A stretch of 34,129 bases of DNA from Planctomycetota bacterium (GTDB taxonomy: Bacteria > Planctomycetota > Planctomycetia > Pirellulales > UBA1268): positions 1 to 34,129 of the forward strand of contig QWPO01000096.1 of assembly GCA_003669255.1 (NCBI GenBank), given 5' to 3'. The position numbers were made by a program, and so were the translations under genes. This document shows positions 2 to 22,257 of the stretch, piece after piece; position 1 is the first letter of the stretch, and every line of letters begins with the position of its first letter. The notes under the pieces were generated by a model. It was not told the origin of the DNA. It saw nothing but the letters and a program-made list of their open reading frames with translations, and did no database searches.

Positions 2-2590
2 GAAGGGATGCTCTTCTACAACATCCCGATGCGGTCGAGCGAGTTGGCTCGCGTGATCTCCGACTGCTACCAGACACTCGGACGGCGCAAGACGATCGAC
101 CTGCTTGATGACATGAACCGCGTCGGCTTCGGTTGGAGCACGAAGAGCGGCCTGTCGTTTGCCACCGACGATCTCATCACTCCCACGAGCAAGACTCGGA
201 TCATCGGCGACGCCGAGAAGGAAGTGATGAAGATCCTCAAGCGTTACCAGAAGGGTGTGATCACCGACGGCGAGCGGTACAACTCGGTGCTTGACGCCTG
301 GACGCATGCCCGCGAGCAGATCACCAAGGAAATGATGGCGGAGCTTGAGCAGGATACGGACGCCAAGCCGACCCGCCGGCCCGGTTACGTCAACCCGATC
401 CATCTGATGGCCCACTCCGGTGCCCGAGGTGGTGTCGAACAGATCCGTCAGCTCGCCGGTATGCGTGGCCTGATGGCGAAGCCGTCGGGCAAGATCATCG
501 AGACGCCGATCAAGGCGAACTTCCGCGAAGGTCTGACGGTGCTCGAGTACTTCAGCTCGACGCACGGTGCCCGTAAGGGTCTCGCCGATACGGCCCTCAA
601 GACGGCCGACTCGGGATACCTCACCCGTAAGCTTGCCGACGTGGCGCAGAACGTAGTCGTGACGATGCACGACTGTGGCACGACGCAGGGGATCACCAAG
701 GGGGTGATTTACCGCGGCGAGAAGGTCGAAGTGAGCCTCGCCGACGGTATTCGCGGCCGTGTCAGCCGGTCCGACATCCGCAATCCGATCAGCGACGAGG
801 TGATCGTCCACGAGGACGACCTGATCACGCCGACGATGGCGCGGCAGGTCGAGGAACTCGGCCTCGAGAAGATCCAGGTTCGCAGTCCGCTGACGTGCGA
901 GGCACCGCTCGGCGTCTGCAGGCTCTGCTACGGCATGGACCTTTCCACGGGCTCGCTCGTGGAAGAGGGCATGGCGGTGGGCATCATCGCCGCACAGAGC
1001 ATCGGCGAGCCGGGAACGCAGTTGACGATGCGAACCTTCCACATCGGTGGCGTGGGTCAGCGTGCCATCGAGGAGAGCGAGAGCAAGGCGAAGCGGGCTG
1101 GTACGGTGAAGTTCACCCGGCTTCGCACCGTGACCAACGAGCAGGGCGAGGCCGTCGTGCTCGCTCGCAACGGCGAGATCGCGATCTTCGACGCCAAGGG
1201 CCGCGAACTGGAAAAGTTCGAGATTCCGGCGGGTGCGATTCTGAAGGTCAAGGACAACGACGAGGTCAAGGCTGGCACGGTGCTCGTGCAGTGGGATCCG
1301 CACTCGATCCCGATTCTCTCCGAGGTGGCCGGCAAGGTCCGCTACGAAGACGTGATCGAGAACGAGACGCTCCGCCTCGAGAAGGACCCCAGCGGTCACT
1401 TGCGGCGCATGATCATGGAGCACAAGGGTGTGTACCACCCGCAGGTCGTGCTCGAGGACGAGTCGGGCAAGATCCTCGACTTCTACTATCTGCCGGAGAA
1501 GGCCTACATCGAGGTGTCGCCGGGCGAGATGGTCGCTGCTGGTCACATTCTCGCCAAGACGCCCCGCGAAGCGTCGGGCACGCAGGACATCACCGGTGGT
1601 CTGCCGCGAGTCACGGAGATCTTCGAGGCCCGCAAGCCCAAGGATCCGGCGATCATGGCCGAGATCGACGGCAAGGTGGAACTCCTCGGCGAGAAGCGCC
1701 GAGGCAAGCGGATGATCGTGGTCAAGAACGAGAGCGGCATCGAGCGGGAGCACCTGGTGACGCACGGCAAGCATCTCCGCGTGCACGCCGGCGACATCGT
1801 CAAGGCCGGCGAGGCGCTCGTCGATGGTCCGCTGGTGCCGCACGACATCCTCCGGATCTCGGGCGAGGAGGCGGTGCAGCAGTACCTCACCCGTGAGATC
1901 CAAAACGTCTACCGCAGCCAGCGGGTGGACATCGACGACAAGCACATTGAGATCATCGTTTCGCAGATGCTGCGGAAGGTGAAGATCGAGACCGTCGGCG
2001 ATACGACGCTGCTGCCTGGCAGCGTGATGGACAAGTTCGAGTTCCGAACCGCCAACGACCGGGTCACCGAGTGCCTGCGGATTACCGACAAGGGCGACAG
2101 CGAGTTTGAGGTCGGGGCGATTGTGCCGAAGGACGTGCTCGCGCAGGCGAACGCCCAGATCGAGACACTCGGCGGAGCCGCCGCAAAGGGGGCAAAGCCG
2201 AAGCCGGCCACGGCGAGCACGCAGTTGCTCGGAATCACCAAGGCCAGCGTTCAGAGTTCGAGCTTCATCTCGGCGGCCAGTTTCCAGGAAACCACGAAGG
2301 TGCTGACCGAAGCCGCTCTTGCGGGGAAGGTCGACAACCTCGTGGGGCTCAAGGAGAACGTCATCCTCGGGCACTTGATCCCTGCCGGTACGGGCTTCAA
2401 CACGTTCCAGTCCGCCGAGGTCCGCGTGCGGCCGGAGGCTCTGGAGTCGCTGCGGATGGATCGGGAGAACGTTCTGGCCCGGCAGTTCCCACTGCTCGAG
2501 GCGGCCGCTTCAAGTGACGTCGGTGCCGAAGGCACCGCCCAGACTGGTGACGCGAGCGTCGCCACGCTGGATGCCGGCGGCAACGAGTAA
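2..2590 (+). CDS. rpoC: DNA-directed RNA polymerase subunit beta' (3' portion; 5' end lies outside the window)
   Basis: The open frame runs from the window edge. Diagnostic beta' motifs are present: [21 protein letters not shown] (trigger loop), [31 protein letters not shown] and [16 protein letters not shown]. About 190 aa are inserted between the two trigger-loop halves. Confidence 0.97.
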
Positions 2591-5825: not shown

Positions 5826-5881
5826 ACGGTTCTCCTACGGGTTACGCATGATCCTTGCGAGTCTGTTTGTCCAAGCCCAAC

Positions 5882-5949
5882 GCCGTGAGGCGCGGGGTGA
5901 ACCGCCCACAGACGCCGTGTCCAGCGTTGTTCGCCCGCGGCCTCACGGC
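5882..5949. terminator. Long imperfect inverted repeat between convergent genes (possible bidirectional terminator)
   Basis: GCCGTGAGGCGCGGG (5882-5896) pairs with CCCGCGGCCTCACGGC (5934-5949), giving 15 bp with one bulge and a ~37-nt loop. It lies between the FGE stop (5825) and the PolX stop (6005). There is no T-tract. Confidence 0.3.
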
Positions 5950-6004
5950 CGGTCGGCTTTCGCTCGCCACGAACTCGACGCGCGAGGATCAAGTGTGCTC
6001 CGTA

Positions 6005-7783
6005 TCAACTCTTCTTCGCCATCAGCCGGCGGAGATCGGCCAGCGATCGCGTGTTGGCAACGTGGCTTTTCTCGAGGCCGGCACGACGGGCCTGGAGGAT
6101 ACCGCACCGCATGACGTCGAGGCCGCGGATCGAGTGGGCGTCGGTCGAGATGACAACTGGTACTCCGGCCTGCCGAGCCGCGGCGGCGTGACGGTCATCG
6201 AGGTCGAGCCTCCACGGGTTGGCGTTGATCTCGAGAAAGGTGCCCGTCCGGGCGGCCGCCTGGATGACGGCATTGATGTCGACGTCGTAGGCGGGGCGTC
6301 GGTTGATCAGTCGCCCCGTCGGATGGCCGATCACCCGAACGAACGGATTCTCGATCGCCTCGATGATCCGCGCCGTGATCCGGTCGCGGGGTTGCTGCTG
6401 TCCGTAGTGCAGGCTGGCCACGACCCAGTCGGCCCGGGTGAGGACCTCGTCAGGAAGGTCAAGACCACCCTTCTCGAGCATGTCGACCTCGATCCCCTTG
6501 AGCACCGTGATCGGGGGCGGGCCGTCGGTAGCGAGCGACTCATTGAGCCGGTCAATTTCCTCCCACTGCCTCAGCAGTCGTGTGCGGTCGAGTCCGCGTG
6601 CCATCGTCACCCGCTGGCCATGGTCGGTGATCGCTATGTATTCGAGGCCGCGGCCAATCGCCGCCCGGACCATGTCGGCGAGCGTATCCTCGCCGTCGGT
6701 CGCGGTCGTGTGCATGTGGAGATCGCCGCGGATATCGGCGAGTTCGACGAGCGTCGGCAACGCGCCCCGTTCGGCACGTTCAAACTCGTCGCTCCCTTCG
6801 CGGAGCTCGGGTGGGATCCAAGGCAGTCCCACGGCCTCATAGACCTCGGCCTCGGAACGACCGGCGAGCACGTCGCCGCGGGTGTGGTGGCCATCGGCGG
6901 AGGCATTGAGCTTGTGCACCCCGTATTCGTTGATTGTCAGGCCGCGGTCCCTGGCCCGCGACCGGAGCTTGACGTTGTGCTCCTTCGAGCCGGTGAAGTA
7001 CTGCAGCGCCGCCCCAAACGAGTCCTCCGCCACCACGCGGAGATCGATCTGGATGTCCCGCGGGCCGCGGATGCTCGTCTTGGTGTCGCCGCGTTGCAGC
7101 ACCGCGGCCATGCCGTGCCATCGCTCCAGGTGGTCCATCACGGCGGCGGCCGCCCGGCTATCGACCACCACGTCGAGGTCGCCCACCGTTTCGCGGCCCC
7201 GCCGCCAGCTCCCTGCTCCCTCGACCTGCCGAGCCTCCGGGCACTGCCGCATCCAGCCGAGCACGTCTTGGACGATGGCGTCGGCGTCATTCCAGAGCAT
7301 CCGGGCGTGGGCCGGATCCTTGGCGAAGGCGATGTTGTCGAGAATTGCCGCCTGCGTTTTGGCGCCGAAGCCTTTCACCGACTCGACCCGCTTCTCGCGG
7401 CAGGCCTGTTCGAGAGCTTCCAGCGAGTCGATTCCCAGCGACTCCACGAGTTGCTTCACCTTCTTCGGGCCAAGCCCTGGCACCCGCATCAGTTCGAAGG
7501 CGGCCGCGGGCACCTGGCTCTTGAGTTCCTCGAGCAGGGGAAGTCTGCCGGTATCGAGAAGCCCCTCGATTTTTCCGGCGAGGTCGTCGCCGATGCCGTC
7601 GAGATCCGTCAGGGCTCGGTTCGTATCGGCACGAACAGTGGCCAACGGTTCGACCAGCCCGCCGATGGTGTGGGCCGCGTTGCGGTAGGCACGCACGCGA
7701 AACACGTTGCCACCCTGGTATTCGAGCAGGTCCGCGACGTGGTCGAAGACGGCGGCGATTTCAGAGTTGGTCACGGACCGCAT
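6005..7783 (-). CDS. polX: DNA polymerase X family protein with C-terminal PHP phosphoesterase domain
   Basis: The N-terminus NSEIAAVFDHVADLLEYQGGNVFRVRAYRNAA is a PolX 8-kDa/HhH domain, followed by GSWRRGRETVGDLDVVV. The C-terminal half has the PHP motifs GDLHMHTTATDGE, IAITDH and ISTDAH. Confidence 0.93.
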   Translation of the reverse strand: MRSVTNSEIAAVFDHVADLLEYQGGNVFRVRAYRNAAHTIGGLVEPLATVRADTNRALTDLDGIGDDLAGKIEGLLDTGRLPLLEELKSQVPAAAFELMRVPGLGPKKVKQLVESLGIDSLEALEQACREKRVESVKGFGAKTQAAILDNIAFAKDPAHARMLWNDADAIVQDVLGWMRQCPEARQVEGAGSWRRGRETVGDLDVVVDSRAAAAVMDHLERWHGMAAVLQRGDTKTSIRGPRDIQIDLRVVAEDSFGAALQYFTGSKEHNVKLRSRARDRGLTINEYGVHKLNASADGHHTRGDVLAGRSEAEVYEAVGLPWIPPELREGSDEFERAERGALPTLVELADIRGDLHMHTTATDGEDTLADMVRAAIGRGLEYIAITDHGQRVTMARGLDRTRLLRQWEEIDRLNESLATDGPPPITVLKGIEVDMLEKGGLDLPDEVLTRADWVVASLHYGQQQPRDRITARIIEAIENPFVRVIGHPTGRLINRRPAYDVDINAVIQAAARTGTFLEINANPWRLDLDDRHAAAARQAGVPVVISTDAHSIRGLDVMRCGILQARRAGLEKSHVANTRSLADLRRLMAKKS

Positions 7784-7875
7784 GGCTCCAGGGGCCGGGC
7801 GACTGGAGCCCGACCACCGGAAGTGTTAGCGGAACGGCCTGCGGCGGCAAGCGGCTTGCCCGCCGCGGCTCGCGG

Positions 7876-9024
7876 TCACTGCTGGAGTCGAGCCGGCAGC
7901 GCGGCGGTCGGGTAACCGGGCCGTCTCCCATTGGGGAGCGGGTCGAGCATGGCTGGCTGCCACGAGGTGGTGTGGCTCGTCGGTTCAAGGAGACGGGGAA
8001 AGGCATTCGTGGAAGCCTTCGGCCCCTGGCCGGGAAGGACCGGCATGCCCAGCGGCGCTGCTGAGGGAGCCGCTCCGGCGGCAGGACTGGCCGCACCGGG
8101 GATGGTGAAACCGTTGATGCCCGTGGCCGGCTGTGGCACGGTGGTGGTGCCGGTGGGAGCCGGAGTCGCGAACGGTGGAAGGGTAGGGGTGGCAGAGCCC
8201 GCTGGGGGTGCCACGGGGATCGCGGCCGATTTGGGCAGTTCCGGAATGGGCTTCAGCGACGGTGCCGGCGCCACCGACGGGGTTGGCGAGAGGGGCTGCG
8301 GCTGCGTCGGCTGCGGCTGGATGCCGGCTTGCGGAGCCACGGGAATCGCATATCCGCTCTGGGGTGTGATTGGCTGCTGATAGGTTTGCGGCACGGAAGC
8401 AGGCGGCGCTGAGCCAGGGACCAGCTGCTGCGGAATGTCGGCACCGGCGGCACCCCAGCCCTGCGGCGCTGTCTGGACCGGAGCGGTGAACGGGCTGACG
8501 GCCGGAGCAGAGACGGCTGGTGCTGGAGCAGCCATGCCGGGAGGGGCCATGGCAGGCTGGGCCGCCGGATAGCCGCCACCGTAGCCTGGCTGCATCTGTA
8601 CGTACTTCGTCGTGGTGACGGCGCGATACTGCGTCACGGGCACGTTCACCGCCTGCTGGACGTACTGGGTGACAGGCTGCATGCATTCCCGGGTGCAGCC
8701 CGTGCACGGATCGACCTCGCAGGAAGGCTTGTAGGTGGTGACCGGCACGTTTTGGTACTGCGTGCGGTAGGTCGTTTCAGGCACGTAGCTCGTCTGCTGG
8801 ACGGGCACCATCACGGGGGGCGGAGGCGCCGCGATTGGAGCGGCGATGGGTGCGACCATCGGTGCGGCCACCGGGGCAACAGCGTAGACGGGCGCCTTCT
8901 TGAAGCACGCTCCGCAGCCTGCAAAGAGGTCGTTGAAGCAGCATTGGGCCCGGGCATCAAGGCCGCCCATGACCTGAAAGCCGACTGCAGCCACGAGGGC
9001 CACGGACATCCGACGCATCGTCAT
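7876..9024 (-). CDS. Secreted Cys-motif / Pro-rich low-complexity protein
   Basis: The ATG at 9024 is preceded by GGAGGA 7 nt upstream. The signal peptide is MTMRRMSVALVAAVGFQVMGGLDARA. A Cys cluster CCFNDLFAGCGAC follows, then repeated VPVT(T/Q)Y motifs and a ~230-aa P/A/Q-rich tail. Confidence 0.7.
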   Translation of the reverse strand: MTMRRMSVALVAAVGFQVMGGLDARAQCCFNDLFAGCGACFKKAPVYAVAPVAAPMVAPIAAPIAAPPPPVMVPVQQTSYVPETTYRTQYQNVPVTTYKPSCEVDPCTGCTRECMQPVTQYVQQAVNVPVTQYRAVTTTKYVQMQPGYGGGYPAAQPAMAPPGMAAPAPAVSAPAVSPFTAPVQTAPQGWGAAGADIPQQLVPGSAPPASVPQTYQQPITPQSGYAIPVAPQAGIQPQPTQPQPLSPTPSVAPAPSLKPIPELPKSAAIPVAPPAGSATPTLPPFATPAPTGTTTVPQPATGINGFTIPGAASPAAGAAPSAAPLGMPVLPGQGPKASTNAFPRLLEPTSHTTSWQPAMLDPLPNGRRPGYPTAALPARLQQ

Positions 9025-9228
9025 CACACGTTCCTCCGCTGGCCGTCGCTGTGGGGGAATGCCCGCAGAACCGACGGCAACACGCAAACGTAGGTTGCGC
9101 GGCTGTCGCGACGTGACGAAAAACCAGCCGATGGATCGTGAATTTTGCTCAGCGGCGTCGCACAATCGGCGCGTCCCTCATGACCGCCATATTCGGCCTG
9201 CCCGGCGTCGGATCGAAGCGGACGTGCG

Positions 9229-9861
9229 TCAGGGCCGCCGCTCCTCGAAGCGGTCATACAGCGCTGCCAGCGTGTCGCGGACATTGCCCCGATGGCATCG
9301 AAAAGCCTGCTCGACGTCGTCCGGCAGGATCGAGCCGTGGTGATCGGGCAGCCGTTCGATGATCGCGGCCACCAACGCCGGTGACGACTCGTGGCGGGCG
9401 AGCACGGGAAGGCCGATCGGTCGATGGGCCGTTGTGATCAGGGCCGTTCGCCGCCAGCGTGCCATGGCGACGATCAACACGCCAACTCCCCAGGGGAGTT
9501 GTTCCCAGCCGTCCACAGCCACGATGTGGCCGGACCCGGCCGTCGCCACGGAACTCAGGGCGGGCCATGCATCGGCCCAGGACCGCACCTGCACGAACGA
9601 CGTGGCACGACCCGCGGCGGCGGCGGCGGCGATCAGGGCATGCACCAGGGTGGTCTTGCCGCGGCCGTGTGGGCCTTCGATAACCCAGCAGCCGTCATGG
9701 ATGCGGTCGAGCAATCGTCCCACATCGAGCGGTCGGCCGCTCGCGTCGAGGGGAGGCACGGCCCCCGGCCTTGTGTAGCGGGTCGAGAATGGATTCGCGG
9801 ACGTCAGTCGGGACGCCGTCGGCACCGCGTTGTGCGCACCAGGAGCAACAGGAGCGGGCAT
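9229..9861 (-). CDS. Small P-loop NTPase (AAA-like), family unassigned
   Basis: The ATG at 9861 shares one nucleotide with the upstream stop (TGATG). Walker A is GPHGRGKTTL and the Walker B-like motif is HIVAVDGWEQL. The product is 210 aa with no signal peptide. Confidence 0.75.
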   Translation of the reverse strand: MPAPVAPGAHNAVPTASRLTSANPFSTRYTRPGAVPPLDASGRPLDVGRLLDRIHDGCWVIEGPHGRGKTTLVHALIAAAAAAGRATSFVQVRSWADAWPALSSVATAGSGHIVAVDGWEQLPWGVGVLIVAMARWRRTALITTAHRPIGLPVLARHESSPALVAAIIERLPDHHGSILPDDVEQAFRCHRGNVRDTLAALYDRFEERRP

Positions 9862-10289
9862 CACGGGATGGTCATCAGCGGGCGGGCGGGCGGGAGAAGG
9901 CCGACGGTGAACTCGTGCTCGGAGACATAGTCTCGGCCGCTGTCGAAAAAGAATCGGATGCGAACACACCAGCGAATCTTGACGACCACTCCCTCGTAGG
10001 AGAGCGGGCTGTGGGGCAGGCGGCAGGAGAACTGGCCCATGGGGGCGTTCGGCGGCAGGCGTTCGGGTGCGACAACCCGCTCGAAGAAGTGTACGCCGAG
10101 ATCCTCCTCTCCCTTGCCCTCGGTAAACCACAGCACGGAATGCTCAACGGCCCGCGGTGGCTCGTCGTCGAGACCCTCGACCTCGTACCGCACCTCGACC
10201 GGGTCGAGGGGCTCGTAGTGGCGGTCGCCATGCGAGAATAGTGCGACCACGCGAGGTGTTGGCCGGAGGCCCTCTTGAGCAGTACTCAC
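9861..10289 (-). CDS. Small soluble beta-rich protein, paralogous to the C-terminal domain of the upstream membrane protein (arrestin/Spo0M-like pattern, tentative)
   Basis: The GTG at 10289 overlaps the upstream stop (GTGA), and GGGAGG lies 9 nt upstream. The motif LPHSPLSYEGVVVKIRWCVRIRF parallels IPHDAMHSFASQHNAVRWSIAVH in the neighbouring protein. Confidence 0.65.
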   Translation of the reverse strand: MSTAQEGLRPTPRVVALFSHGDRHYEPLDPVEVRYEVEGLDDEPPRAVEHSVLWFTEGKGEEDLGVHFFERVVAPERLPPNAPMGQFSCRLPHSPLSYEGVVVKIRWCVRIRFFFDSGRDYVSEHEFTVGLLPPARPLMTIP

Positions 10290-11626
10290 GGGAAAGCCTC
10301 CCGCCGCAGACCTCCGTGGTCGATCGTCGGCTCTGCCGGAAAGACCACGAGCGGGAACGTGCGGACAAACCCCGGCCAGCCCGCGGGCTGGCCATGCACG
10401 GCAATACTCCACCGGACCGCATTGTGCTGGGATGCGAACGAATGCATCGCATCGTGGGGAATCGTGAACGCCTCTCGGGCTTCGAACCGTGCGCCGGGCG
10501 TGAGCTGCAGGTCGACCCAGGTCCGAATGTCGCAGGCCCAGACGGTCATTCGTTCCGTGCGGGTGTCGGTGCCCTGCGTGAAGGTGGCCTGCTCTTCGAG
10601 GGTCAGCGCGAGCCGCAGCGAATCGAGCGTCCCGGAACCACCCTGAGCCAGCAGCACCTCGTACCTGCCGCCTGGGCGGAGCGGCTGGGCGGAGATCTCG
10701 AGCTGCGTCGGTCCCACGGCCGTGGTGAGCAGGCCTCGCCTGATGAATAGCACCAGGCTGGCGATGCCAACGGCAGCGAACGGAACAAGCAGTGTGAGCA
10801 GGAGCCAGTCGATCTTCCCGCGGACGAGGTCCACGACGGCCCCGACGCCGAGCACCGCCAGCACCGAGTTCCAGAGGAAGGCAAACAGACCGAAGCCGAG
10901 TAGCGTCCAGTTCTCGGGGCTCTCGATTGGGAGACGGTAGGGGAGAACAGTGCCCGGCGAGTTCACGAGGTCATCGCAGGCCGGAACGCCCGGATGCTCA
11001 GCCGCCTGCCGCGGGCCGGCGGCGAGCGGGTCGAGGAGATCGGAGAATCGTGAGGGGACTGCGCACCGCTCCTCCGACCGTCCCCACCGCCGGATCGCAC
11101 GGGCCAGACCCATTCCGCCAAACGAGATCAGCGCGCCGGGCAACAGCAGCGTGAGCAGCCACATCCACCAGTTGTAGCCCCGCTCCAGGACGACCGTGGC
11201 GGGAGCCGTAGGGTCGTACCATCCCGGGACGGTGTCGCCGAGCTTCCAGGCCGACAGCGCGGCGACCGCCTTTGCTCGGTCGCTCGCCGTGGTGCTGCGC
11301 GAGGGAGTGCTCCACGACTCTGTAGGGCTGCCGGCCACGTCGTAGCGGACGCGGAGGCACGGCTGCCACGTGAAGGAACTGCTACGGTCGGCAGCGACGA
11401 CGGTGCGTCGCACGAGTCCCTTGCCCAGGACCGTACAGTCGGTTGCCAGGAAGTGCTGGTTGATCCGCCACTCCGGAACCGCCACACCGGAGAGGAGTAG
11501 GCCTGAAAAGACGATCCCTGCGGCAAGCAAGGCCGCATGGAATGCGGCATCGCCGAGCGAGGCCCAGGCCTGAGAGCCGGTCCGGCGATGGCCGCGCTTC
11601 TTGCCGAAAAACCGCGGAAATCTCAC
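10286..11626 (-). CDS. Four-TM membrane protein: DUF3592-like ectodomain plus C-terminal cytoplasmic beta-rich domain
   Basis: The GTG start at 11626 has GGAGGCGAGGAG upstream. TM1 is ~27-49. A beta-rich segment ending KLGDTVPGWYDPTAPATVVLERG follows the DUF3592-like pattern. TM2 is ~152-173 and the TM3/TM4 pair ~241-295. A ~125-aa soluble C-terminal domain follows. Confidence 0.8.
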   Translation of the reverse strand: MRFPRFFGKKRGHRRTGSQAWASLGDAAFHAALLAAGIVFSGLLLSGVAVPEWRINQHFLATDCTVLGKGLVRRTVVAADRSSSFTWQPCLRVRYDVAGSPTESWSTPSRSTTASDRAKAVAALSAWKLGDTVPGWYDPTAPATVVLERGYNWWMWLLTLLLPGALISFGGMGLARAIRRWGRSEERCAVPSRFSDLLDPLAAGPRQAAEHPGVPACDDLVNSPGTVLPYRLPIESPENWTLLGFGLFAFLWNSVLAVLGVGAVVDLVRGKIDWLLLTLLVPFAAVGIASLVLFIRRGLLTTAVGPTQLEISAQPLRPGGRYEVLLAQGGSGTLDSLRLALTLEEQATFTQGTDTRTERMTVWACDIRTWVDLQLTPGARFEAREAFTIPHDAMHSFASQHNAVRWSIAVHGQPAGWPGFVRTFPLVVFPAEPTIDHGGLRREAFP

Positions 11627-11659
11627 TCGCGAACTCCTCGCCTCCTTGGCGGGAGCCGG

Positions 11660-11962
11660 TCAGATGCAGCGGGCCGCCGCCTCCGGCTGCCGTACGCCCA
11701 GCTCGCCCGAGGATGACTGCACACGGAAGAAACCGATCTTCTCCAGAGATTTGTAGACCTCTTCGAGCGTCTTCTCGCCGAAGTTCGAGATCGACAGCAG
11801 ATCAGCCCGCGTGCAGTTAAGGAGGTCGTGGACGGTAAAGATGCCCTTCTCCTCGAGGCAGTTCGTCGTGCGGACGGAGAGGCCGATCTCGGCCGTGCTC
11901 ATTTCGAGCTTCTCCGCCATTTCGTCGGACTGCATCATGTTTTTGTATGGCACTCGCGGCAT
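11660..11962 (-). CDS. Stand-alone RNA polymerase alpha-subunit C-terminal-domain (alpha-CTD) protein
   Basis: The ATG at 11962 has GGGAGGGA upstream. LEMSTAEIGLSVRTTNCLEEKGIFTVHDLLNCTRADLLSISNFGEKTLEEVYKSLEKIG matches the alpha-CTD HhH signature. The product is only 100 aa and has no alpha-NTD. Confidence 0.85.
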   Translation of the reverse strand: MPRVPYKNMMQSDEMAEKLEMSTAEIGLSVRTTNCLEEKGIFTVHDLLNCTRADLLSISNFGEKTLEEVYKSLEKIGFFRVQSSSGELGVRQPEAAARCI

Positions 11963-12110
11963 GGGGTCCCTCCCGTGCGAATCGACGTAGTGGTTTGGCC
12001 GCCCGGGCGTGAGGCCCAGCGAGCAGGCAATGAATATACTCCAATTGGCTGAGAATCGACTACATCGCCTCAGCAGGACCACCCGCGTGGGCCTCGCCTC
12101 GTGCTGAATT

Positions 12111-14516
12111 GTGCCGTTCCAGACCGTGACAGCATCATCTTTCGCCTCCCTGAACGAGTCTCAGCGCCGTGCTGCGAGCCACGTCGAGGGCCCGCTCTTG
12201 GTGCTAGCAGGCCCTGGCAGCGGCAAGACCCGCGTGGTCACTCACCGGATTGCGCACCTGATCGCAGAGGGGGTGCCGCCCGAGCGGATCGTGGCCCTGA
12301 CCTTCACCAACAAGGCAGCCGACGAAATGCGGCACCGCGTGGCCAACCTCGTGGGGCCGCAGCCGGTGGAGATGGGCACCTTCCACCGATTCGCGGCCCG
12401 GCTGATCCGTCGCCACGCTCGGCTCGTCGGGCTGACGAGCGACTACTCCATCCTCGACCCCGATGATGCGGCCGCCACGCTGAAGCGGGCCGTGAAATCG
12501 ATTGGCCTTGCCGCCACGCACACGCCGGTCGACCGGATTGCCGGGATCATCTCCCGGGCGAAAAACGACCTGCTCACGCCGGCCACCTTCGAGCCCGGCT
12601 GGGGAAAACCCGCCGAGGATCTGGCGCTGCGGGTCTGGCCGATCTACCAGCAGATGCTCGTGCGGGCCAACGCGGTCGATTTCGATGACCTGCTCGTGCA
12701 CGTGGCCACGGTTCTCGCGGAGAACCCCGACCTCCGCCGCGAACTCGATGCCCGGCACCGCTTCATCCTCGTAGACGAATACCAGGACACCAACGCCGTT
12801 CAGTATGCGATCCTCCGTGGCCTGTCGATCGAACACCCGCATCTCGCCGTGACCGGCGATCCCGATCAGGCGATCTATGGATGGCGGGGCGCGAGCATTC
12901 GCAACATCCTCGAGTTCGAGCGGGACTATCCCACCGCGCAGGTCGTGAAACTGGAGGACAACTACCGGAGCACGGCGAATATTCTGGGGACGGCCGACCG
13001 CCTGATCGCCCACAACTCCAGGCGGAAGCACAAACGACTCGTCACCACTGCAGGGCCTGGCGCGCCGGTGCGGATCGTGCTCGATGGCTCGGGACTCGAG
13101 GAGGCCGAGCGTATCGCTTCCGAGATCGCCACGTCGGTGCTCGCTGGCCGCCGGGCGCCGCGGGACTTCGCGATTCTCTTCCGCGCCAACGCGCTCTCCC
13201 GCTCCTTCGAACTCGCCCTGCGGACCAGGGGCGTGTCCTACCAACTCGTTCGCGGCCTCGAGTTCTTCAAGCGACGCGAGATTCGCGACGTTGTCGCGTG
13301 GCTACGATTGCTCCGCAACCCGCGGGACGACGAGGCTCTGCTCCGCGTGGTCAACGTGCCGCCCCGGGGGATCGGCCGCCAGTCACTCGACCGGCTCGCA
13401 GCCTGGGCCGAGGATCACGGGGCTACCCGGCTCGACGCCGTGGCGAACGCCGCCGCGATTCCCGGCATGCCCAAACGGGCGGCGATCGCGTGTGCCGGTT
13501 TTGCGAGGCTCGTGGCCGAACTGACGGCCGTGGCCGGAAAGGAATCGTCGGTTGCCGCGATTCTTGAGGCGGTGCTTGAGCGGACGGGCTACCGCGCGAT
13601 GCTCGCGGAGGAGCAGGACGAGGACGAAGAGGGACAGGACCGACTCTCCAACGTCGAAGAACTCGTGACCGCGGCCCGGCAGTTCGACGATGGTTTCACG
13701 GCTCCCGTAGACGACCCGTCTGCCGTCGATCCGCTCGGCGGATTTCTTGAGACGACAGCACTCGTCGCCGATGCCGATGCGTGGGACGCCTCGGCCGACC
13801 GGGTGGCGTTGATGACGCTCCATGCGGCTAAGGGCTTGGAGTTTCCGGTTGTTTACATCGTCGCCATGGAGGACGGCATCCTTCCGCACGAGCGGAGCCT
13901 CGACCGTCCGGAGCACCTCGAGGAGGAGCGGCGGCTGGTGTTTGTGGGGATCACTCGGGGCCGCGAGGAGGTCCACGCGAGTTGCGCCCGCATGCGAGAC
14001 TACCGGGGCACGCGACGGATCTCGGCGCCGAGTCTGTTCCTCGCCGAGATGCAGGGTTCTGAAACGGTGGTGGTGGGCACCGAGGCGCCGAGGGATACCG
14101 ACTTCGATCCCTTCGGCGATGCTGCGGCGCGGCAGAGCGAGGATTTCGACGACTTCGCGCAGGATGAACCGCGGCCCCGATCCTCATCACTGGTACGCCG
14201 TGATGGACTCACGGTCGATCTCGAAGACTCGCAGGATGACTCGCCGCCGCCCCCACCGCCGCCACGAAGGCGGCGGGGCGTTGACGCGGCGATCGAGCGG
14301 GCCACCGATCTGGCGATGCGGATGGCCGGTGAAGGAAAGCCGCGGCGCGAGTATGCGAAGGGCCAGCGGGTGAGGCACGAAGAATACGGCGAGGGAGTGA
14401 TCGCCGGCATCAGTGGCAGCGGCCCACGCTCGATCGGCACGGTGATCTTCGACGGCCCGGCCGGCACGAGGAAGTTCATCCTCGGCCACGGTGCGCTCGA
14501 GCCCGTCGAGGAGTGA
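12111..14516 (+). CDS. ATP-dependent DNA helicase, UvrD/PcrA/Rep family
   Basis: The start is GTG at 12111. SF1 motifs are LNESQRRAA, LVLAGPGSGKT, ILVDEYQDTN, NYRS, TLHAAKGLEFPVV and VGITRG. The C-terminal Tudor-like tail is GQRVRHEEYGEGVI. Confidence 0.95.
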   Translation: MPFQTVTASSFASLNESQRRAASHVEGPLLVLAGPGSGKTRVVTHRIAHLIAEGVPPERIVALTFTNKAADEMRHRVANLVGPQPVEMGTFHRFAARLIRRHARLVGLTSDYSILDPDDAAATLKRAVKSIGLAATHTPVDRIAGIISRAKNDLLTPATFEPGWGKPAEDLALRVWPIYQQMLVRANAVDFDDLLVHVATVLAENPDLRRELDARHRFILVDEYQDTNAVQYAILRGLSIEHPHLAVTGDPDQAIYGWRGASIRNILEFERDYPTAQVVKLEDNYRSTANILGTADRLIAHNSRRKHKRLVTTAGPGAPVRIVLDGSGLEEAERIASEIATSVLAGRRAPRDFAILFRANALSRSFELALRTRGVSYQLVRGLEFFKRREIRDVVAWLRLLRNPRDDEALLRVVNVPPRGIGRQSLDRLAAWAEDHGATRLDAVANAAAIPGMPKRAAIACAGFARLVAELTAVAGKESSVAAILEAVLERTGYRAMLAEEQDEDEEGQDRLSNVEELVTAARQFDDGFTAPVDDPSAVDPLGGFLETTALVADADAWDASADRVALMTLHAAKGLEFPVVYIVAMEDGILPHERSLDRPEHLEEERRLVFVGITRGREEVHASCARMRDYRGTRRISAPSLFLAEMQGSETVVVGTEAPRDTDFDPFGDAAARQSEDFDDFAQDEPRPRSSSLVRRDGLTVDLEDSQDDSPPPPPPPRRRRGVDAAIERATDLAMRMAGEGKPRREYAKGQRVRHEEYGEGVIAGISGSGPRSIGTVIFDGPAGTRKFILGHGALEPVEE

Positions 14517-16701: not shown

Positions 16702-17493
16702 TCAGCCCCCAGCGGCAGACTCAGGTGCACCGGCGGCGGGCGTTTCCGGCTGGTTGCCCTCGGCCGGTGGGCTCGTGGCTGCAGGTTCGTCGCCAGAGCC
16801 CCGAATCGCCGTGTCCAGCATGGGCAATAGCTGAGAGATGAAATCCTCGCACTCCACCATCGCCTGGGAACTGGTCAGTCGCGTTTCATCAACGATGGCG
16901 TAGAGCTTGTAGACGGCGGGTTCATGAACGAGTGCGATGCGGGCAATCTGCGGCGCGACCCAACTGCGGCTGGCCGTCACGTCCTCCTTGTCGATCTCGG
17001 CCTCGTCGCGGATGCCATACGTCCAGAAGATGCGGAGCGTCTGGCCGGTCTTGCGGAACGTGCCGGTGAAGGTCTCCGCCTCGCGGCCGTCGGCGAGCTG
17101 CATCTTTTGGCGATGCTCGGCCTCACCGATCTCGAACCCGGCGCCGGGATAGCAGCGGTCGGGAGTGTGGCCAGAGGCGTCGTGGGGACGGGCGCAGACG
17201 ACGAAGGCCGAGACTCGTGCCTTTGTTCGCGTGTTGCGGTAGAGCCGCGAGATGTAGCCCACCGCACCGGCGCGCTCGAGTTCCTTCGGATCAGCCTCGA
17301 GTTCCCGCTCGACTTCCCAGCCACCGAAGGACTTGGGGAACCGCTCCTCGAGGAGTGTGGCGGCCTCCTGGAGATCCTTGGAGACGCTCTTGTCTTTCCA
17401 GCGTTCCGTCAGAAAACCCTGGGCGACCGTGACGCCGAGCACCAGCGCCACCGTGCCGGCCAGCGTGAGCATTCCCGAAGCCGGAGACTTCAT
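16702..17493 (-). CDS. Exosortase-associated EpsI-family protein (DUF3485-like)
   Basis: It has an N-terminal anchor, the motif GHTPDRCYPGAGF typical of EpsI, a P/A/E-rich tail, and sits in the exosortase operon. Confidence 0.7.
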   Translation of the reverse strand: MKSPASGMLTLAGTVALVLGVTVAQGFLTERWKDKSVSKDLQEAATLLEERFPKSFGGWEVERELEADPKELERAGAVGYISRLYRNTRTKARVSAFVVCARPHDASGHTPDRCYPGAGFEIGEAEHRQKMQLADGREAETFTGTFRKTGQTLRIFWTYGIRDEAEIDKEDVTASRSWVAPQIARIALVHEPAVYKLYAIVDETRLTSSQAMVECEDFISQLLPMLDTAIRGSGDEPAATSPPAEGNQPETPAAGAPESAAGG

Positions 17494-17574
17494 GGCGATT
17501 CAGGTTCCTATGGCAAGCGATTCGGAGCCCCTAGGCGGGGCAAACGAGGCGAGGCAAACGGGTCAAGGCAACAA

Positions 17575-19827
17575 TCAGACCGGAGCGGGCGAAGCGTAGA
17601 GCCGCCGAGGCGCGGAGTCGGACACGCCATTGACCACCGTGCCCAGAACACGAATGCCGACCGAGCGGAGCCGATCGACGGCGCTGTTGACCTGCGGAAC
17701 GCGGCTCACGTCGCGCATCGTCGCCACGATGGCAAGATCGCTCAGTTGGCCAAGGAGGAGCACGTCGGCAAACGCGAGCACCGGACCGGCATCGATCACA
17801 ATGGTATCGAACGACTCGCGAAAGCCCTTGATGATGGCTGCCGACTCAGGGCGGGAGAGCGCGGTGATGGCGGCGTAGTCGCACGCGCCGCCGGTGACCG
17901 CGAACAGGCCGTCGATCGCGGTGGGCTGTACCACTTCATCGGCCGAAATCTCACCACGAAGCAACTCCGGAAGGCCCGCCCGCAGATCGAGGCCAAGGGC
18001 GAGGTGGACGTTCGGGTGACGCAGATCGCCGTCGAGTAGCAGCGTCCGCTTCCCGGAGCGTGCGAGGCTCGCGGCGAGTTGGGCCGCGAACGTGGTCTTG
18101 CCTTCGTGCTCGACGGCACTGGTGACGAGAATCGCCTTCGGAGACTCGCGGCCGGTCTGGCTGACCACGGCGCGGATGCCGTCGACACACTCGGCCACGT
18201 GTCCATCGTTCGGACGCCGGCGCGAACGCGAAATCCGCGGCAAGGTGCCGATCACCCGCAGGCCGACCCGCTGGGAGACTTCCTCGGGGACGCTGAGCCG
18301 GTCCCGGAGATATTCAAAGAGCACAACAGTGCCGCCGCCGAGAACAAGGCCTGCGAGCGCCGCGAGGCCTGAGAGCATCGTGCGGAACAGATCATCACTT
18401 CCCTCTGGCACGCTCGCTTCCTCGATCAACTCCACGCGATTCGGCATGTTGACGTCGATCTCGGTCGCATTGAGCTGCACGCCCATCTGGTCGGTGACCT
18501 TCATGAGCTGCTCAATCTCCTGCTTGCGGGACATCAGGTCCGCATTGGCGGCTCCCAGAGCCTTCACCTCGGTGGCGACGCGATCAAAATCCTTCGTCGT
18601 CTGCTCGAGCTGCTGGGAGAGGATTTCCCGCCGCATCCGCAGGACGATGGGGCTCTCGGCCGCGGCACCGGTGCGGCGGGTGGACGAATCCATGGCGAGC
18701 TGAGCGACGATCTGCGGCCGGAGATCTTCCTTGCGATCCTCGAGTCGCTTGACCATCGCGTCTCGCATCGCCTCGAGCCGCTTGACGGCTGGATCGTTGC
18801 CGCCGCGGGCGCTCCGCCCGGTCTGATACGACATCGACTCCTCGATGGCAGACAGCCGCTCGCGGAGTTCGGCGAACTCAGGGTCGCGGAGAAGCAACGC
18901 GTCGACGGTCTCTTCCGGAACTGACTGCTCCAGCGAAATCTCACCGCGGTCCTTGGCATCCATGATCGCCAGTTCCGCGTCGATGAGCGTCAGGTCGCGC
19001 TGCGTTTGATTGAGCTGTGCTCGCAGGGTGCCGAGGTGATCGAGCAGGAGGCTTCGCTGCGTGGCTACTTCCGCACTGTCGATGGTGCCGAGCGACTTGG
19101 CGAGATTGTTATAGGTGTCGAGGCTGGCCCGCACCTCCGCCATGTTTTCCTTGTACTTCCGCTCGAGGGTGTCGCGCCGCTGGAGCCGCTCCGACTTCTC
19201 CTTGTTGACGACGTCGGTGAGGTAGGCGTTGGTCACCGCGTTGACGATTTGCGTCACCTCTTTGGCATTCTCGCCGCGCATCCGCACCTGAACGACTTCC
19301 GACTCCATCGGAGCCGAAACCTGCACGTTGCGCACCAGGTAGCCGACCGGATCCTCCTCTTCAGTCAGCGTTGCGAGTGCCGAAATACCCGGGCGACGGA
19401 TGGCGGAGGTGAGCACAAAAGGGCTCTTGATCAGCTGCACCTGCGTCTTTCGGTAGGCCTCGTATTCCGCATTGTCGCGGCCGCCACCAACGCCGTACAT
19501 GCCCGACTTGTCACGAACGCGAAGCCATGCCACGGCCTCGTATCCGCGGGGCAGGAACAAAAAGGTGAGCAGGCCGGCGAGCGTGCCGAGCGTGAGCGCC
19601 AGGGCGGTTGCCGGCAACCAGCGGCGGCGGAACGCATGCCACACCCGCCGATAATCAATGCCGCCCGAGAGCGGATCGGCGACTCCACCATACGGCCCCG
19701 CGGACGACGGAGGCCCAAGGGGCGAGAGCACCGTATCGCGGATCGGCGCGAGCATACCCGCACCCGCACCTACGGTGGCAGTTGCCGCGGAAGATGATCC
19801 GTCCATGGGTGTACCGGACTCGCTCAT
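17575..19827 (-). CDS. Polysaccharide co-polymerase (Wzz/GumC-like) fused to BY-type tyrosine autokinase domain
   Basis: Two TM segments flank a long coiled-coil periplasmic region. The C-terminal P-loop domain has Walker A VEHEGKTT, Walker A' LLLDGDLRHP and Walker B TIVIDAGPV. Confidence 0.88.
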   Translation of the reverse strand: MSESGTPMDGSSSAATATVGAGAGMLAPIRDTVLSPLGPPSSAGPYGGVADPLSGGIDYRRVWHAFRRRWLPATALALTLGTLAGLLTFLFLPRGYEAVAWLRVRDKSGMYGVGGGRDNAEYEAYRKTQVQLIKSPFVLTSAIRRPGISALATLTEEEDPVGYLVRNVQVSAPMESEVVQVRMRGENAKEVTQIVNAVTNAYLTDVVNKEKSERLQRRDTLERKYKENMAEVRASLDTYNNLAKSLGTIDSAEVATQRSLLLDHLGTLRAQLNQTQRDLTLIDAELAIMDAKDRGEISLEQSVPEETVDALLLRDPEFAELRERLSAIEESMSYQTGRSARGGNDPAVKRLEAMRDAMVKRLEDRKEDLRPQIVAQLAMDSSTRRTGAAAESPIVLRMRREILSQQLEQTTKDFDRVATEVKALGAANADLMSRKQEIEQLMKVTDQMGVQLNATEIDVNMPNRVELIEEASVPEGSDDLFRTMLSGLAALAGLVLGGGTVVLFEYLRDRLSVPEEVSQRVGLRVIGTLPRISRSRRRPNDGHVAECVDGIRAVVSQTGRESPKAILVTSAVEHEGKTTFAAQLAASLARSGKRTLLLDGDLRHPNVHLALGLDLRAGLPELLRGEISADEVVQPTAIDGLFAVTGGACDYAAITALSRPESAAIIKGFRESFDTIVIDAGPVLAFADVLLLGQLSDLAIVATMRDVSRVPQVNSAVDRLRSVGIRVLGTVVNGVSDSAPRRLYASPAPV

Positions 19828-19912
19828 AAGGTTTGGCTACTCACTGCTGATACACGGCCCGTTGACCGAATCCCCAAGGGGTTGCTTCGGCCCAACTGAA
19901 CATTCCTTAAGA

Positions 19913-21124
19913 TTACCCCAACTTTTCGTCGCCATCACGGGGCGGCGAAATCGGCCTCGACTCCGTAAGATTTCCCGAAGGAATCGAGGGAAACGCCCCT
20001 GTTTGCCGAGACGCCGCGGGCGGCGCCATGGGCCTCGGACCTGCCGTCAAGGGCTGGAAGGCCGAGCCCGTTCGTGCCGGCAGCGGGGCCGATGTCCGCT
20101 GGCCCGACGTCATCATCGTCGGCGCCATATCCTCCGTGACCACGAGGTACGAAAGGATCTTCATCTCCAAGACGAGAAATCCCACGGCCAGGAGCATCAT
20201 GAGCATCGCCGCCGGAGTGCTGTCGTGAAAGTGCTCGGCGATCGACATCTTGTAGTTGTACATCACGCCCACGGTCGTGATCCGGAAGGCGTTGCAGATC
20301 AGGGCGATCGGGATCGCGCTGGCCGCGATCGCAAGGTTCTCCCACCACTCGAGACCACCAACCAGCATCAGCATGGCCGCTAGCCAGACGAAGATCGTGA
20401 GCATCTTCAGGCCACTGCAGGCGTCAACCACGCCGAGCACCTGTCCATCGCCAAGGATGATCCGATTGCCGTCCCGGTACGCGTCGAGCCCGATCGTCTG
20501 CAGTGTGTAGGTGCTGACGATCGTGGCCACGGTCTGCAGCGGACCGAGCAGGTAGCGGGTTGCCTCGTCGGGCAGTGGGTACATGAAAATCAGGCTGGCC
20601 AGCGGGGCCCATGACCAGCGGAACATGCTCCAGCCACCGGCCAGCAGGAACACGCCCATCAGCGCCGGCACGAACGTGTACATGTCGATCGTCACGATGC
20701 GGTAACTGGCGCAGAACAGCCGCAGCGCGAAACTCGCCACGAGCAGGCCGATGCCCGCAGCGCGTGCCGTCGGCGTGATTGGCCCCACTGGTTTTCGCCA
20801 CCAGAAGAGCAGGAGGCACGTGAACACCGGCACGATCCAGCCGTGCTGGTACTGCGGATTGTCCCAGAAAGAAGGCAACTGAACGAGACTCGGCCAGTAG
20901 CTGTAAAAGAGCAGCGCCGTCAGGACGCCGACCACGACCAACGGCAGCCGCTGATCGGGCAATCGCATGTCGGCCACGAACGCTCGGCCTCGCCGGATGG
21001 CCCCTTGAAGCAGGCCCTCGTCTTCCGTCACCGTGGTGACCGCCGCCTGCTGTGCAGCGACGTCCGGTGACGACTGCGGAAGAGGTGACCGCTTGGCCGG
21101 CAGAATTGGAGAGGGAAAAGACAT
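19913..21124 (-). CDS. Exosortase family protein (EpsH/Xrt-like)
   Basis: The protein is polytopic. Exosortase signatures are VVDACSGLKM (catalytic Cys region) and ALICNAFRITTVG (Asn/Arg). A ~75-aa Pro-rich C-terminal tail follows. Confidence 0.85.
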   Translation of the reverse strand: MSFPSPILPAKRSPLPQSSPDVAAQQAAVTTVTEDEGLLQGAIRRGRAFVADMRLPDQRLPLVVVGVLTALLFYSYWPSLVQLPSFWDNPQYQHGWIVPVFTCLLLFWWRKPVGPITPTARAAGIGLLVASFALRLFCASYRIVTIDMYTFVPALMGVFLLAGGWSMFRWSWAPLASLIFMYPLPDEATRYLLGPLQTVATIVSTYTLQTIGLDAYRDGNRIILGDGQVLGVVDACSGLKMLTIFVWLAAMLMLVGGLEWWENLAIAASAIPIALICNAFRITTVGVMYNYKMSIAEHFHDSTPAAMLMMLLAVGFLVLEMKILSYLVVTEDMAPTMMTSGQRTSAPLPARTGSAFQPLTAGPRPMAPPAASRQTGAFPSIPSGNLTESRPISPPRDGDEKLG

Positions 21125-22219: not shown

Positions 22220-22257
22220 CTTCCCGCCGCGTTCATGTGCCACGCCCGCGGTCACGC

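Follow-up and report, generated by a model that had tools for sequence, protein, structure and literature searches.

Eukaryotic membrane signalling and trafficking depend on arrestin-fold proteins as central adaptors. Eukaryotic arrestins work close to the membrane, where they bind short, often phosphorylated peptide tails of membrane proteins. Among prokaryotes, Spo0M is the only arrestin-clan family that has been described, with members in Cyanobacteria, Actinobacteria, Proteobacteria and Firmicutes and also in haloarchaea; Planctomycetota are not listed (PMC2515105). The Spo0M protein of Bacillus subtilis (PDB 5cl2; Pfam Spo0M, arrestin N-like clan CL0135) is a cytoplasmic beta-sandwich whose mechanism is unclear. 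In fission yeast, Sms1 is reported to be a hemi-arrestin that acts as a signalling scaffold (PMC13144348). The present analysis concerns a four-gene cassette on a 34,129-nucleotide stretch of Planctomycetota DNA (assembly GCA_003669255.1, contig QWPO01000096.1; this whole stretch is called the window below). The cassette encodes a stand-alone C-terminal domain of RNA polymerase alpha (alpha-CTD; g1), a membrane protein with four transmembrane (TM) helices and a predicted arrestin-fold lobe (g2), a second, soluble lobe predicted to have the same fold (g3) and a small putative ATPase (g4).

The other recognisable part of g2 is a DUF3592 domain. Proteins of this family typically have about 150-240 residues and end after a second TM helix. 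No function has been established for DUF3592, and the family is named only in passing in the literature. The cassette itself is real, conserved and assignable to no known kind of system; it is new as a system, although its folds are known. Searches of Pfam, NCBIfam and PADLOC found no named system that matches it, and it is not described in the literature on DUF3592, PF03118, bacterial arrestins or Spo0M. The supplements of the essential-gene paper on Planctopirus limnophila contain no DUF3592 or RNA_pol_A_CTD entry.

A conserved operon with a translationally coupled core

The cassette is best explained as an operon that Pirellulales-type Planctomycetota carry on the chromosome and inherit vertically, with a translationally coupled core trio g2-g3-g4. 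Its genes are arranged as follows.

11660..11962, minus strand: g1, 100 aa counted from the ATG
11627..11659, minus strand: spacer of 33 nt between g1 and g2, with the Shine-Dalgarno-like motifs AAGGAGG and GAGGAG
10286..11626, minus strand: g2, 446 aa, GTG start
9861..10289, minus strand: g3, 142 aa, GTG start
9229..9861, minus strand: g4, 210 aa

A first-pass annotation of this DNA had listed four minus-strand open reading frames (ORFs) joined by this spacer and by two overlaps, with Shine-Dalgarno motifs before the first three. The ORF table and the reverse-strand sequence agree with this description: the end of g2 overlaps the start of g3 by 4 nt (GTGA), the junction of g3 and g4 is a TGATG stop/start overlap, and motifs of the GGAGG type lie 5' of g1, g2 and g3, with none read 5' of g4. 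An in-frame GTG at 9864, directly 5' of the g4 ATG, is an alternative start, whose use would give the same type of 4-nt overlap (ATGA/GTGA) as in most relatives. The GC content at third codon positions (GC3) is 0.78-0.84 in all four frames. The ratio of nonsynonymous to synonymous substitution rates (dN/dS) is 0.07-0.24, measured against the two closest relatives, for which dS is unsaturated; by this ranking g1 is the most tightly constrained gene and g4 the least (0.23-0.24). Purifying selection together with GC3 thus marks g1 to g4 as real genes. A scan of positions 8900-12300 found no promoter-like site and a single terminator-like site, which lies inside g2 and is fewer than chance expects; none occurs between g1 and g2.

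A genome scan gave a close set of 72 loci, all from metagenome-assembled genomes (MAGs) of Planctomycetota and mostly labelled Pirellulales. Homologous loci carry the labels Pirellulales, Thermoguttaceae and Planctomycetia, and the few odd ones (Kuenenia, Chitinophagaceae, Nealsonbacteria) look like mislabelled MAGs. The close loci hold the four genes in the same order, with uvrD divergent upstream and a proline-rich secreted protein and polX downstream; since these flanks are identical, plain synteny alone could explain the gene order at this distance. The 4-nt overlap of g2 and g3 is present in 65 of 69 related loci, and in most of these 69 the genes g3 and g4 overlap or lie at most 3 nt apart. 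The gap between g1 and g2 spans 18 to 322 nt in 68 of them, with only 18-45 nt in many; in the remaining one (L067) an artefactual start call makes g2 overlap g1.

More distant loci separate the cassette from its flanks. All eight loci at about 38-40% g2 identity (L073-L077 and L159-L161) keep g2-g3-g4 with overlaps in front of changing downstream genes (lipase, Na/H exchanger, GH106 and others). The orthology of g3 and g4 in these mid-distance loci is supported by hidden Markov model (HMM) searches with E values of 1e-39 to 1e-48, except in L077. There, two ORFs of 103 and 100 aa that lie in different frames make up the g4 orthologue (L077:7721-8331; 1.3e-30 and 3e-17), as a result of a frameshift, pseudogenisation or an assembly error. 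The alpha-CTD gene stands directly upstream of g2 in six of the eight. At 27-29% identity, L165/L166 and L167 still hold alpha-CTD-g2-g3-g4, with neither uvrD nor polX nearby. The whole block from uvrD through the cassette to polX recurs down to about 38% g2 identity and is lost in the most divergent loci. Synteny of this block was considered as the sole cause of the linkage and rejected, since the trio or quartet stays together even with other flanks. The earlier proposal that the four genes form a conserved unit thus holds, as they are still neighbours at 27-40% identity despite changed flanks. The trio g2-g3-g4 is a robust functional unit, and the alpha-CTD gene is a very frequent, non-obligatory fourth member.

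In-frame fusion proteins, P0258 (591 aa) and P0511 (501 aa), run from a g2-type C-terminal region into a full g3; if they are natural, they are Rosetta-stone evidence for an interaction of the two proteins. A metagenome scan with the g3 profile kept 80 loci, all with at least 55% identity, and these close relatives therefore add no deep diversity.

Two contigs from freshwater-lake metagenomes, L079 (Ga0114973_10000666) and L080, carry a g3 that is 99% identical to the one in the window and probably come from the same species.

Two arrestin-fold lobes encoded by adjacent genes

The protein g3 has no match in Pfam, NCBIfam or PADLOC, and searches of its profile against PDB sequences gave insignificant matches only. 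It carries an invariant W-x-TEGKGEED hairpin and a motif LPxSPLSYEGxxVKxRWCxRxR. Its AlphaFold2 (AF2) model, built from a 54-sequence alignment, is a seven-strand sandwich with a predicted local distance difference test score (pLDDT) of 82.4 and a predicted template-modelling score (pTM) of 0.76. When the models of g3 and g2 were compared with the PDB by Foldseek, the top matches of both were lobes of the arrestin clan, with a Foldseek probability of 1.00 and moderate target-normalised TM-scores of 0.55-0.69.

ARRDC3 N-lobe: g3 3.5e-6, g2 1.6e-9
TXNIP/VDUP-1 N-domain: g3 1.2e-5, g2 1.1e-8
B. subtilis Spo0M: g3 1.4e-5, g2 2.9e-8

Next in both lists come beta-arrestins and VPS26. The Foldseek output carries no query ranges, so the location of the g2 match was assigned by alignment span: the alignments cover 128-159 columns and the DUF3592 domain only about 87 residues, which places the match in the C-terminal sandwich of g2. 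The models thus predict that g3 and the C-terminal domain of g2 are each a single arrestin-fold lobe, and g3 and g2 residues 307-426 both show the fold of clan CL0135 (Arrestin_N, Arrestin_C, Vps26, Spo0M). This identity of the beta domain was missed by the first-pass annotation.

Sequence comparison gives no significant match of the lobes to a family model of the clan. The window proteins give no match at E<=1 to the clan models, and sub-threshold matches to Arrestin_C or Arrestin_N (E 0.012-0.035) occur in 3 of 41 g3 members and 3 of 22 divergent g2 members; the g3 protein of L076 bears one precomputed weak Arrestin_C match. The Spo0M model finds no sequence-level match in the g2 and g3 family members searched. 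Spo0M is, moreover, a single soluble protein without a membrane anchor, a partner lobe, an ATPase or an alpha-CTD neighbour, unlike the cassette. The best structural matches of both lobes, namely the eukaryotic alpha-arrestins, TXNIP, ARRDC3, beta-arrestins and VPS26, share 10-18% identity with them. This likeness may reflect homology or convergence of the sandwich. Eukaryotic arrestins hold an N and a C lobe in one chain, whereas here there is one lobe per protein: g3 is one seven-strand sandwich, and g2 carries one sandwich after TM4 and thereby tethers it to a four-TM protein. None of the PPxY, clathrin or retromer partners of eukaryotic arrestins is present in the cassette. Sms1 differs from the cassette in that it is a eukaryotic, soluble mitogen-activated protein kinase scaffold (PMC13144348).

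The first-pass annotation had treated g3 as a copy of the C-terminal domain type of g2 and had called the two paralogous. At the level of the fold the Foldseek results agree with it. At the level of sequence profiles the two lobes do not resemble each other (hhalign probability 1%), so that the word paralogous was too strong; the idea that the lobes are sequence-level paralogues was dropped and that of a shared fold kept. An alignment reading does find one arrestin-like motif common to both lobes, P-x(3,4)-S-[FY]-x(2,5)-[VI]-[KR]-W-x-[VI]-x-[VI], located before strand 6.

The membrane protein g2

Hydropathy and the AF2 model agree on the layout of g2, which consists of four TM helices, a cytoplasmic basic tail, the DUF3592 domain, a loop, a hairpin and the C-terminal sandwich.

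g2 residues 1-23 (11558..11626, minus strand): basic N-tail FFGKKRGHRRTGS, with 7 K/R and no D/E; AF2 pLDDT <50
g2 residues ~24-49: TM1
g2 residues 50-152 (11171..11479, minus strand): DUF3592 beta domain, predicted periplasmic; strands 60-146, AF2 pLDDT 77-93
g2 residues 153-178: TM2
g2 residues 179-239 (10910..11092, minus strand): cytoplasmic TM2-TM3 loop, RWGRSEE ... PGVPxCDDLVNSPGTxLRYRLPIESPExW
g2 residues 240-304: TM3/TM4 hairpin
g2 residues 305-430 (10337..10714, minus strand): single arrestin-fold lobe (hemi-arrestin), predicted cytoplasmic; seven-strand sandwich 307-426, AF2 pLDDT 75-93

By the positive-inside rule the DUF3592 domain would lie outside the cytoplasmic membrane and the C-terminal sandwich inside. 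The architecture and topology proposed earlier, including a DUF3592-like segment and a cytoplasmic C-terminus, are thus borne out by Pfam, hydropathy, AF2 and this rule. The DUF3592 model (PF12158) matches g2 residues 73-151 with 5.7e-9 and 37 bits, above its cutoff of 25.3, and a TM helix lies on either side of the match; the model also matches 17 of the 22 divergent members. The arrangement of TM helix, beta domain and TM helix is common to g2 and to other DUF3592 membrane proteins, to which g2 adds the conserved loop, the TM hairpin and the arrestin-like lobe.

Two predicted cytoplasmic segments of g2 are strongly conserved. In the tail, K9, K10, R11, G12, H13, R14, R15, T16, G17 and S18 are nearly invariant in the g2 alignment, and the motif is still present in cluster representatives at 30-40% identity. 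The TM2-TM3 loop is predicted to be disordered, with an AF2 pLDDT below 50 at residues 181-238, and its invariant positions include S184, E186, P215, C217, S223, P224, G225, T226, R231, L232 and P233. As a possible parallel to the peptide tails bound by arrestins, this basic tail and loop, which contain conserved Ser/Thr residues, sit beside the lobes. The charges of the g2 tail and of the invariant acidic g3 hairpin (TEGKGEED) are complementary. L167 alters both the g2 tail (KKRGxRR to RRGIGR) and the g3 loop (EED to NAD), so that both elements are degenerate there; as a single case, this joint change is only a hint. A link between loss of the g2 tail and loss of g3 and g4, which L163 had suggested, was dropped, because L167 has a degenerate tail and yet keeps both genes.

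The g2 family is large. An exhaustive profile search found 4375 cluster representatives (50% identity) at E<=1e-3 and 535 at E<=1e-30, with full-length members extending to about 28-30% identity. A shorter variant of 340-380 aa (P0242, P0299, P0311, P0343 and others; L162:1458-2486) is without the DUF3592 beta domain and retains the basic N-tail, the first TM helix, the loop, the TM hairpin and the arrestin-like lobe.

The small P-loop protein g4

Four segments stand out in the alignment of g4.

g4 residues 23-39 (9745..9795, minus strand): N-terminal peptide NPF-x-TR-x-T-x-PG-x(3)-P-x-D; N23, P24, F25, R28 and G33 invariant
g4 residues 63-70 (9652..9675, minus strand): Walker A GPHGRGKT; H65, G66, G68 and K69 invariant, G63 and P64 nearly so
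g4 residues 113-120 (9502..9525, minus strand): Walker B-like strand IVAVDGWE; D117 invariant, W119 nearly so
g4 residues 192-206 (9244..9288, minus strand): C-terminal motif G-N-[LVI]-R-[DE]-x-L-x(2)-L-Y-D; R195, L201, Y202 and D203 invariant

The alignment confirms that the Walker A sequence and the VAVDGWE segment reported earlier are present and conserved, in keeping with a small P-loop NTPase. Most members have an acidic residue at +3 of the Walker B-like Asp (DGWE, DGYE or DGFD), and a VTSHR strand (hhhT-[ST]-H) is also conserved. The NPF peptide, the Walker B-like strand and the C-terminal motif are kept in divergent loci, the NPF peptide at 27-40% g2 identity. From its resemblance to the G-[DS]-x-R-x-A-L motif of clamp loaders and Cdc6, the R195 motif is a candidate sensor-2 arginine. 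The protein shows the Walker A form of AAA+ proteins (GPxGxGK[ST]). It also conserves the strands hhhhDGWE and VTSHR and the motif GN[LV]RE; the Walker B is non-canonical, and no AAA model of Pfam or NCBIfam reaches its cutoff. In these respects g4 resembles minimal AAA+/STAND P-loop NTPases, with GPxGxGK[ST], D-G-[WYF]-[ED], hhhT-[ST]-H and G-N-[LVI]-R-x-x-L; its 210 residues leave no room for the winged-helix and sensor modules of STAND proteins. The Pfam matches of the family are all sub-threshold (AAA_16 in 31 of 36 members, nSTAND_NTPase5 in 24 and NACHT in 13), and those to nSTAND3, nSTAND5 and NACHT cover about 25-60 residues around the P-loop. Against PDB sequences, g4, its profile and its C-terminal half gave only P-loop-level or insignificant matches. 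On its motifs, g4 reads as an orphan minimal AAA+/STAND-like switch ATPase, putative in this assignment.

These matches raise the question of phage defence. An anti-phage or abortive-infection system, in which a STAND/AAA-like NTPase senses infection and the four-TM protein is a membrane-disrupting effector, would fit the weak similarity of g4 to nSTAND3, nSTAND_NTPase5, NACHT and AAA_16 and, in PADLOC, to mad8, Hhe, SspC and PtuA (E 3e-4 to 0.04, P-loop only). It would also fit a weak match of g1 to the alpha-CTD-like segment of BREX PglW (4.3e-5 in PADLOC-DB v2, confined to the helix-hairpin-helix (HhH) segment), as well as the gene that overlaps the end of g4 by 8 nt in two loci (L165:5363-7174, L166:2974-4785). 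The latter encodes a 603-aa N6-methyltransferase of type IIG-like organisation (N6_Mtase/Eco57I/TaqI_C) and is the only defence-like neighbour seen. However, none of the PADLOC matches reaches significance for a system: nothing in PADLOC-DB v2 matches g2 or g3, and the matches of g1 and g4 are restricted to the HhH segment and the P-loop. The gene order is the same in 87 of 87 loci, with the same housekeeping flanks in the close and most mid-distance loci, and so uniform a core-genome position is the reverse of what defence systems show, namely a patchy distribution on islands. The genes around the cassette in the window (rpoC, uvrD, polX, scpB and the exosortase locus) are of housekeeping type and not mobile or defence-like. 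The dN/dS values are low, the cassette holds no nuclease, protease, TIR, SIR2 or other effector domain, and g4 is without the sensor repeats that define STAND proteins. A role in defence is therefore highly improbable. The earlier statement that the genes map to no named secretion, defence, toxin-antitoxin or signalling system accordingly stands: profile searches in Pfam, NCBIfam and PADLOC place them in no described system, and they stay neighbours where the flanks have changed.

The stand-alone alpha-CTD protein g1

The protein g1 is a clear member of the RNA_pol_A_CTD family (PF03118), with an E value of 1.6e-19 and 69.9 bits against a cutoff of 23.8. BLASTP aligns it with residues 259-312 of Escherichia coli RpoA at 35% identity. 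Six RpoA residues form the DNA-binding '265 determinant'; five of them (R265, N268, C269, G296 and K298) are identical in g1, and S299 is conservatively replaced by T. The residues of the 287 determinant, which contact CAP, are not kept according to an alignment reading. Comparison with RpoA 249-329 shows that the N-terminal dimerisation and assembly domain of alpha is missing from the 100 aa of g1, and equivalog models for full-length rpoA stay far under their cutoffs (TIGR02027 gives 62 bits against 227.8 and covers model positions 224-292 only). Without this domain and with equivalog scores below cutoff, g1 is not a polymerase subunit. By sequence, it is a stand-alone alpha-CTD with its DNA-contact residues kept. 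It is also the most conserved of the four genes, with 66-98% identity where g2 has 38-94%.

The retained DNA-contact residues are relevant to a further explanation, in which the cassette serves DNA metabolism or tethers the nucleoid to the membrane. The HhH protein g1 and a DnaA/Hda-like AAA+ protein g4 would then be anchored by g2 and g3 and act together with UvrD and PolX. The block from uvrD through the cassette to polX, present in all close loci and in four of the eight mid-distance loci, speaks for such a role, as does the best NCBIfam match of g4, the DnaA inactivator Hda (3e-4). The Hda score, however, is 20 bits against a cutoff of 195 and covers the P-loop region only. In addition, uvrD and polX are both missing from the most divergent loci that still hold the cassette, and the genes between g4 and polX vary. 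This explanation is accordingly given little probability.

A possible split-arrestin signalling complex

The combined reading of these elements is a membrane-anchored 'split arrestin' adaptor or sensor complex with an ATPase switch and with the alpha-CTD protein as a possible transcriptional output, and we give it about an even chance of being correct. A much higher rating goes to the narrower statement that the locus is a conserved operon for a membrane-anchored arrestin-fold and ATPase module. The first-pass annotation had already suggested a stoichiometric complex with g2 as sensor and an output through the alpha-CTD, all of which may apply.

In the proposed mechanism, g2 would span the cytoplasmic membrane, the DUF3592 domain facing the periplasm and the hemi-arrestin lobe the cytoplasm. 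If g3 docks on this lobe, the two could make up a two-lobed clamp that resembles an arrestin on the inner side of the membrane. The segments that the lobes would likely bind are the g2 N-tail (KKRGxRRTGS), the g2 TM2-TM3 loop (PGVPxCDDLVNSPGTxLRYRLP) and the N-terminal NPF..RPG peptide of g4. The model of lobe and ligand follows from the conservation of the disorder-predicted g2 tail and loop and of the g4 peptide, as segments of this kind commonly become ordered on contact with a partner. Strand addition is the way in which arrestin lobes take up peptides, and the segments named here would probably be bound in the same way, as in arrestin-peptide complexes. Binding and hydrolysis of ATP by g4 may assemble or reset the complex. 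The periplasmic DUF3592 domain would provide the input, and the signal could be the state of the envelope or a periplasmic ligand. The most likely output would be the alpha-CTD protein, held or released by the complex; once released, it could bind A/T-rich DNA or compete with RNA polymerase alpha.

A more specific version of this scheme is a bacterial counterpart of receptor-arrestin signalling. Here g2 would be a receptor that carries its own lobe and recruits g3, with the Ser/Thr-rich tail or loop as a possibly phosphorylated ligand. The ATPase g4 would reset the complex, and free alpha-CTD would go to UP-element-like DNA or compete with RNA polymerase alpha. This version is regarded as unlikely.

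Several observations weigh against the combined split-arrestin reading. The profiles of g3 and g2 show no similarity to each other (the hhalign value given above), so that a common origin or a pairing of the lobes is only a possibility. The fusion proteins that would support pairing may be artefacts, as a one-base error at the 4-nt overlap is enough to create them. The protein g4 falls under every family threshold, and its Walker B is DGWE instead of the canonical DE, which leaves its class and catalytic competence uncertain. The parts of the cassette are not strictly obligate, as seen from the variant without DUF3592 and from L163. In the latter, a g2 at 28.6% identity (L163:172-1830), without the KKRGxRRTGS tail, follows the alpha-CTD gene after 9 nt, with no g3 or g4 downstream and two unrelated minus-strand genes in their place. 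The link to the alpha-CTD gene is also interrupted in places. In L073, three inserted genes part it from g2, leaving it beside uvrD and 4.7 kb from the trio; L077 has no alpha-CTD gene within 6 kb; and in L162 the short form of g2, which has a different gene and no alpha-CTD upstream, precedes g3 (4-nt overlap) and g4. The g1-g2 spacer is variable, and g1 may thus be a separately regulated neighbour.

The last of these points lead to the view that the trio is the sole unit. The alpha-CTD would then belong with the divergent uvrD, for example in transcription-coupled repair, and its place next to g2 would be ancient synteny only. The trio itself would possibly be an adaptor or quality-control device for membrane proteins, for instance by an arrestin-like hand-over to a protease; eukaryotic alpha-arrestins hand cargo to ubiquitin ligases. 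In favour of this separation, 69 of the close loci hold the alpha-CTD gene and uvrD adjoins it in every one of them, as it does in seven of the eight mid-distance loci, and the L073 insertion keeps this adjacency while parting the alpha-CTD gene from the trio. L077 and L162 hold the trio without an adjacent alpha-CTD gene, the g1-g2 gap varies where g2/g3 and g3/g4 overlap, and g1 evolves far more slowly than the trio, as would a separate housekeeping partner. The divergent loci, however, point the other way: L163, L165/L166 and L167 are without uvrD, yet there too the alpha-CTD gene directly precedes g2 in the same direction, at gaps of 9, 51 and 470 nt, respectively. The short gap in many loci and the lack of a terminator-like site between g1 and g2 in the window also speak against separation, which we consider somewhat unlikely. 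The earlier inclusion of the alpha-CTD in the cassette therefore agrees with the strong linkage in nearly all loci and fails for L073, L077 and L162. The combined reading, with the alpha-CTD as possible output, retains the strength stated above.

Genomic surroundings of the cassette

The window is ordinary chromosome with a GC content of about 67%, and its gene content includes the 3' part of rpoC, polX, uvrD, a GDP-mannose dehydratase, an exosortase locus and scpB. The PolX and UvrD/PcrA-type helicase genes bracket the cassette. Since the window begins within rpoC, about 9 kb separate the cassette from core RNA polymerase genes in the source genome.

8-2590, plus strand: rpoC (RNA polymerase beta-prime domains 3-5); the window begins inside this gene
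6005-7783, minus strand: PolX, with HHH_8, pol-beta thumb and PHP domains
7876-9024, minus strand: 382-aa protein about 200 nt downstream of g4, with a signal-peptide-like N-terminus and a Cys-rich stretch CCFNDLFAGCGAC
12111-14516, plus strand: UvrD/PcrA-type helicase, divergent from the alpha-CTD gene
16702-21124, minus strand: exosortase-type locus with a DUF3485 (EpsI-like) protein, a 750-aa protein with a C-terminal CbiA/ParA-type P-loop domain, and the exosortase EpsH
21212-22270: protein with a prepilin-peptidase N-terminal domain

The 382-aa protein has a long low-complexity sequence rich in Pro, Ala and Gln and no Pfam match. Its gene lies 3' of g4 in all close loci that reach far enough and in several mid-distance loci (L073, L075 and L159); in L077 it has been moved away along with polX. 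The protein may be a partner of the cassette in the periplasm or no more than a neighbour by synteny.

Long ORFs also run antisense to real genes, such as 5855-7915 on the plus strand (686 aa, opposite polX), 12204-13244 on the minus strand and many others. They are typical artefacts of a 67% GC genome and not genes.

Significance

With Spo0M as the only prokaryotic precedent, the cassette adds two predicted arrestin-fold families that escape sequence profiles. One is part of a membrane protein and the other is free, and both are encoded by overlapping genes beside an orphan ATPase. It offers a tractable and testable system in which to study the roles of arrestin lobes in bacteria and to ask whether two-lobed arrestins arose from pairs of hemi-arrestins. 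It also gives the widespread DUF3592 domain a first functional context, and the very slowly evolving free alpha-CTD protein is possibly a new type of transcription regulator. If the receptor-arrestin-like version of the mechanism were true, the cassette would represent a new class of transmembrane signal transduction and would offer a prokaryotic setting in which two-lobed arrestins could have originated. The order to whose core genome the cassette belongs is large, ecologically abundant and poorly understood, and the role of the cassette is therefore likely to lie in the basic cell biology of planctomycetes.

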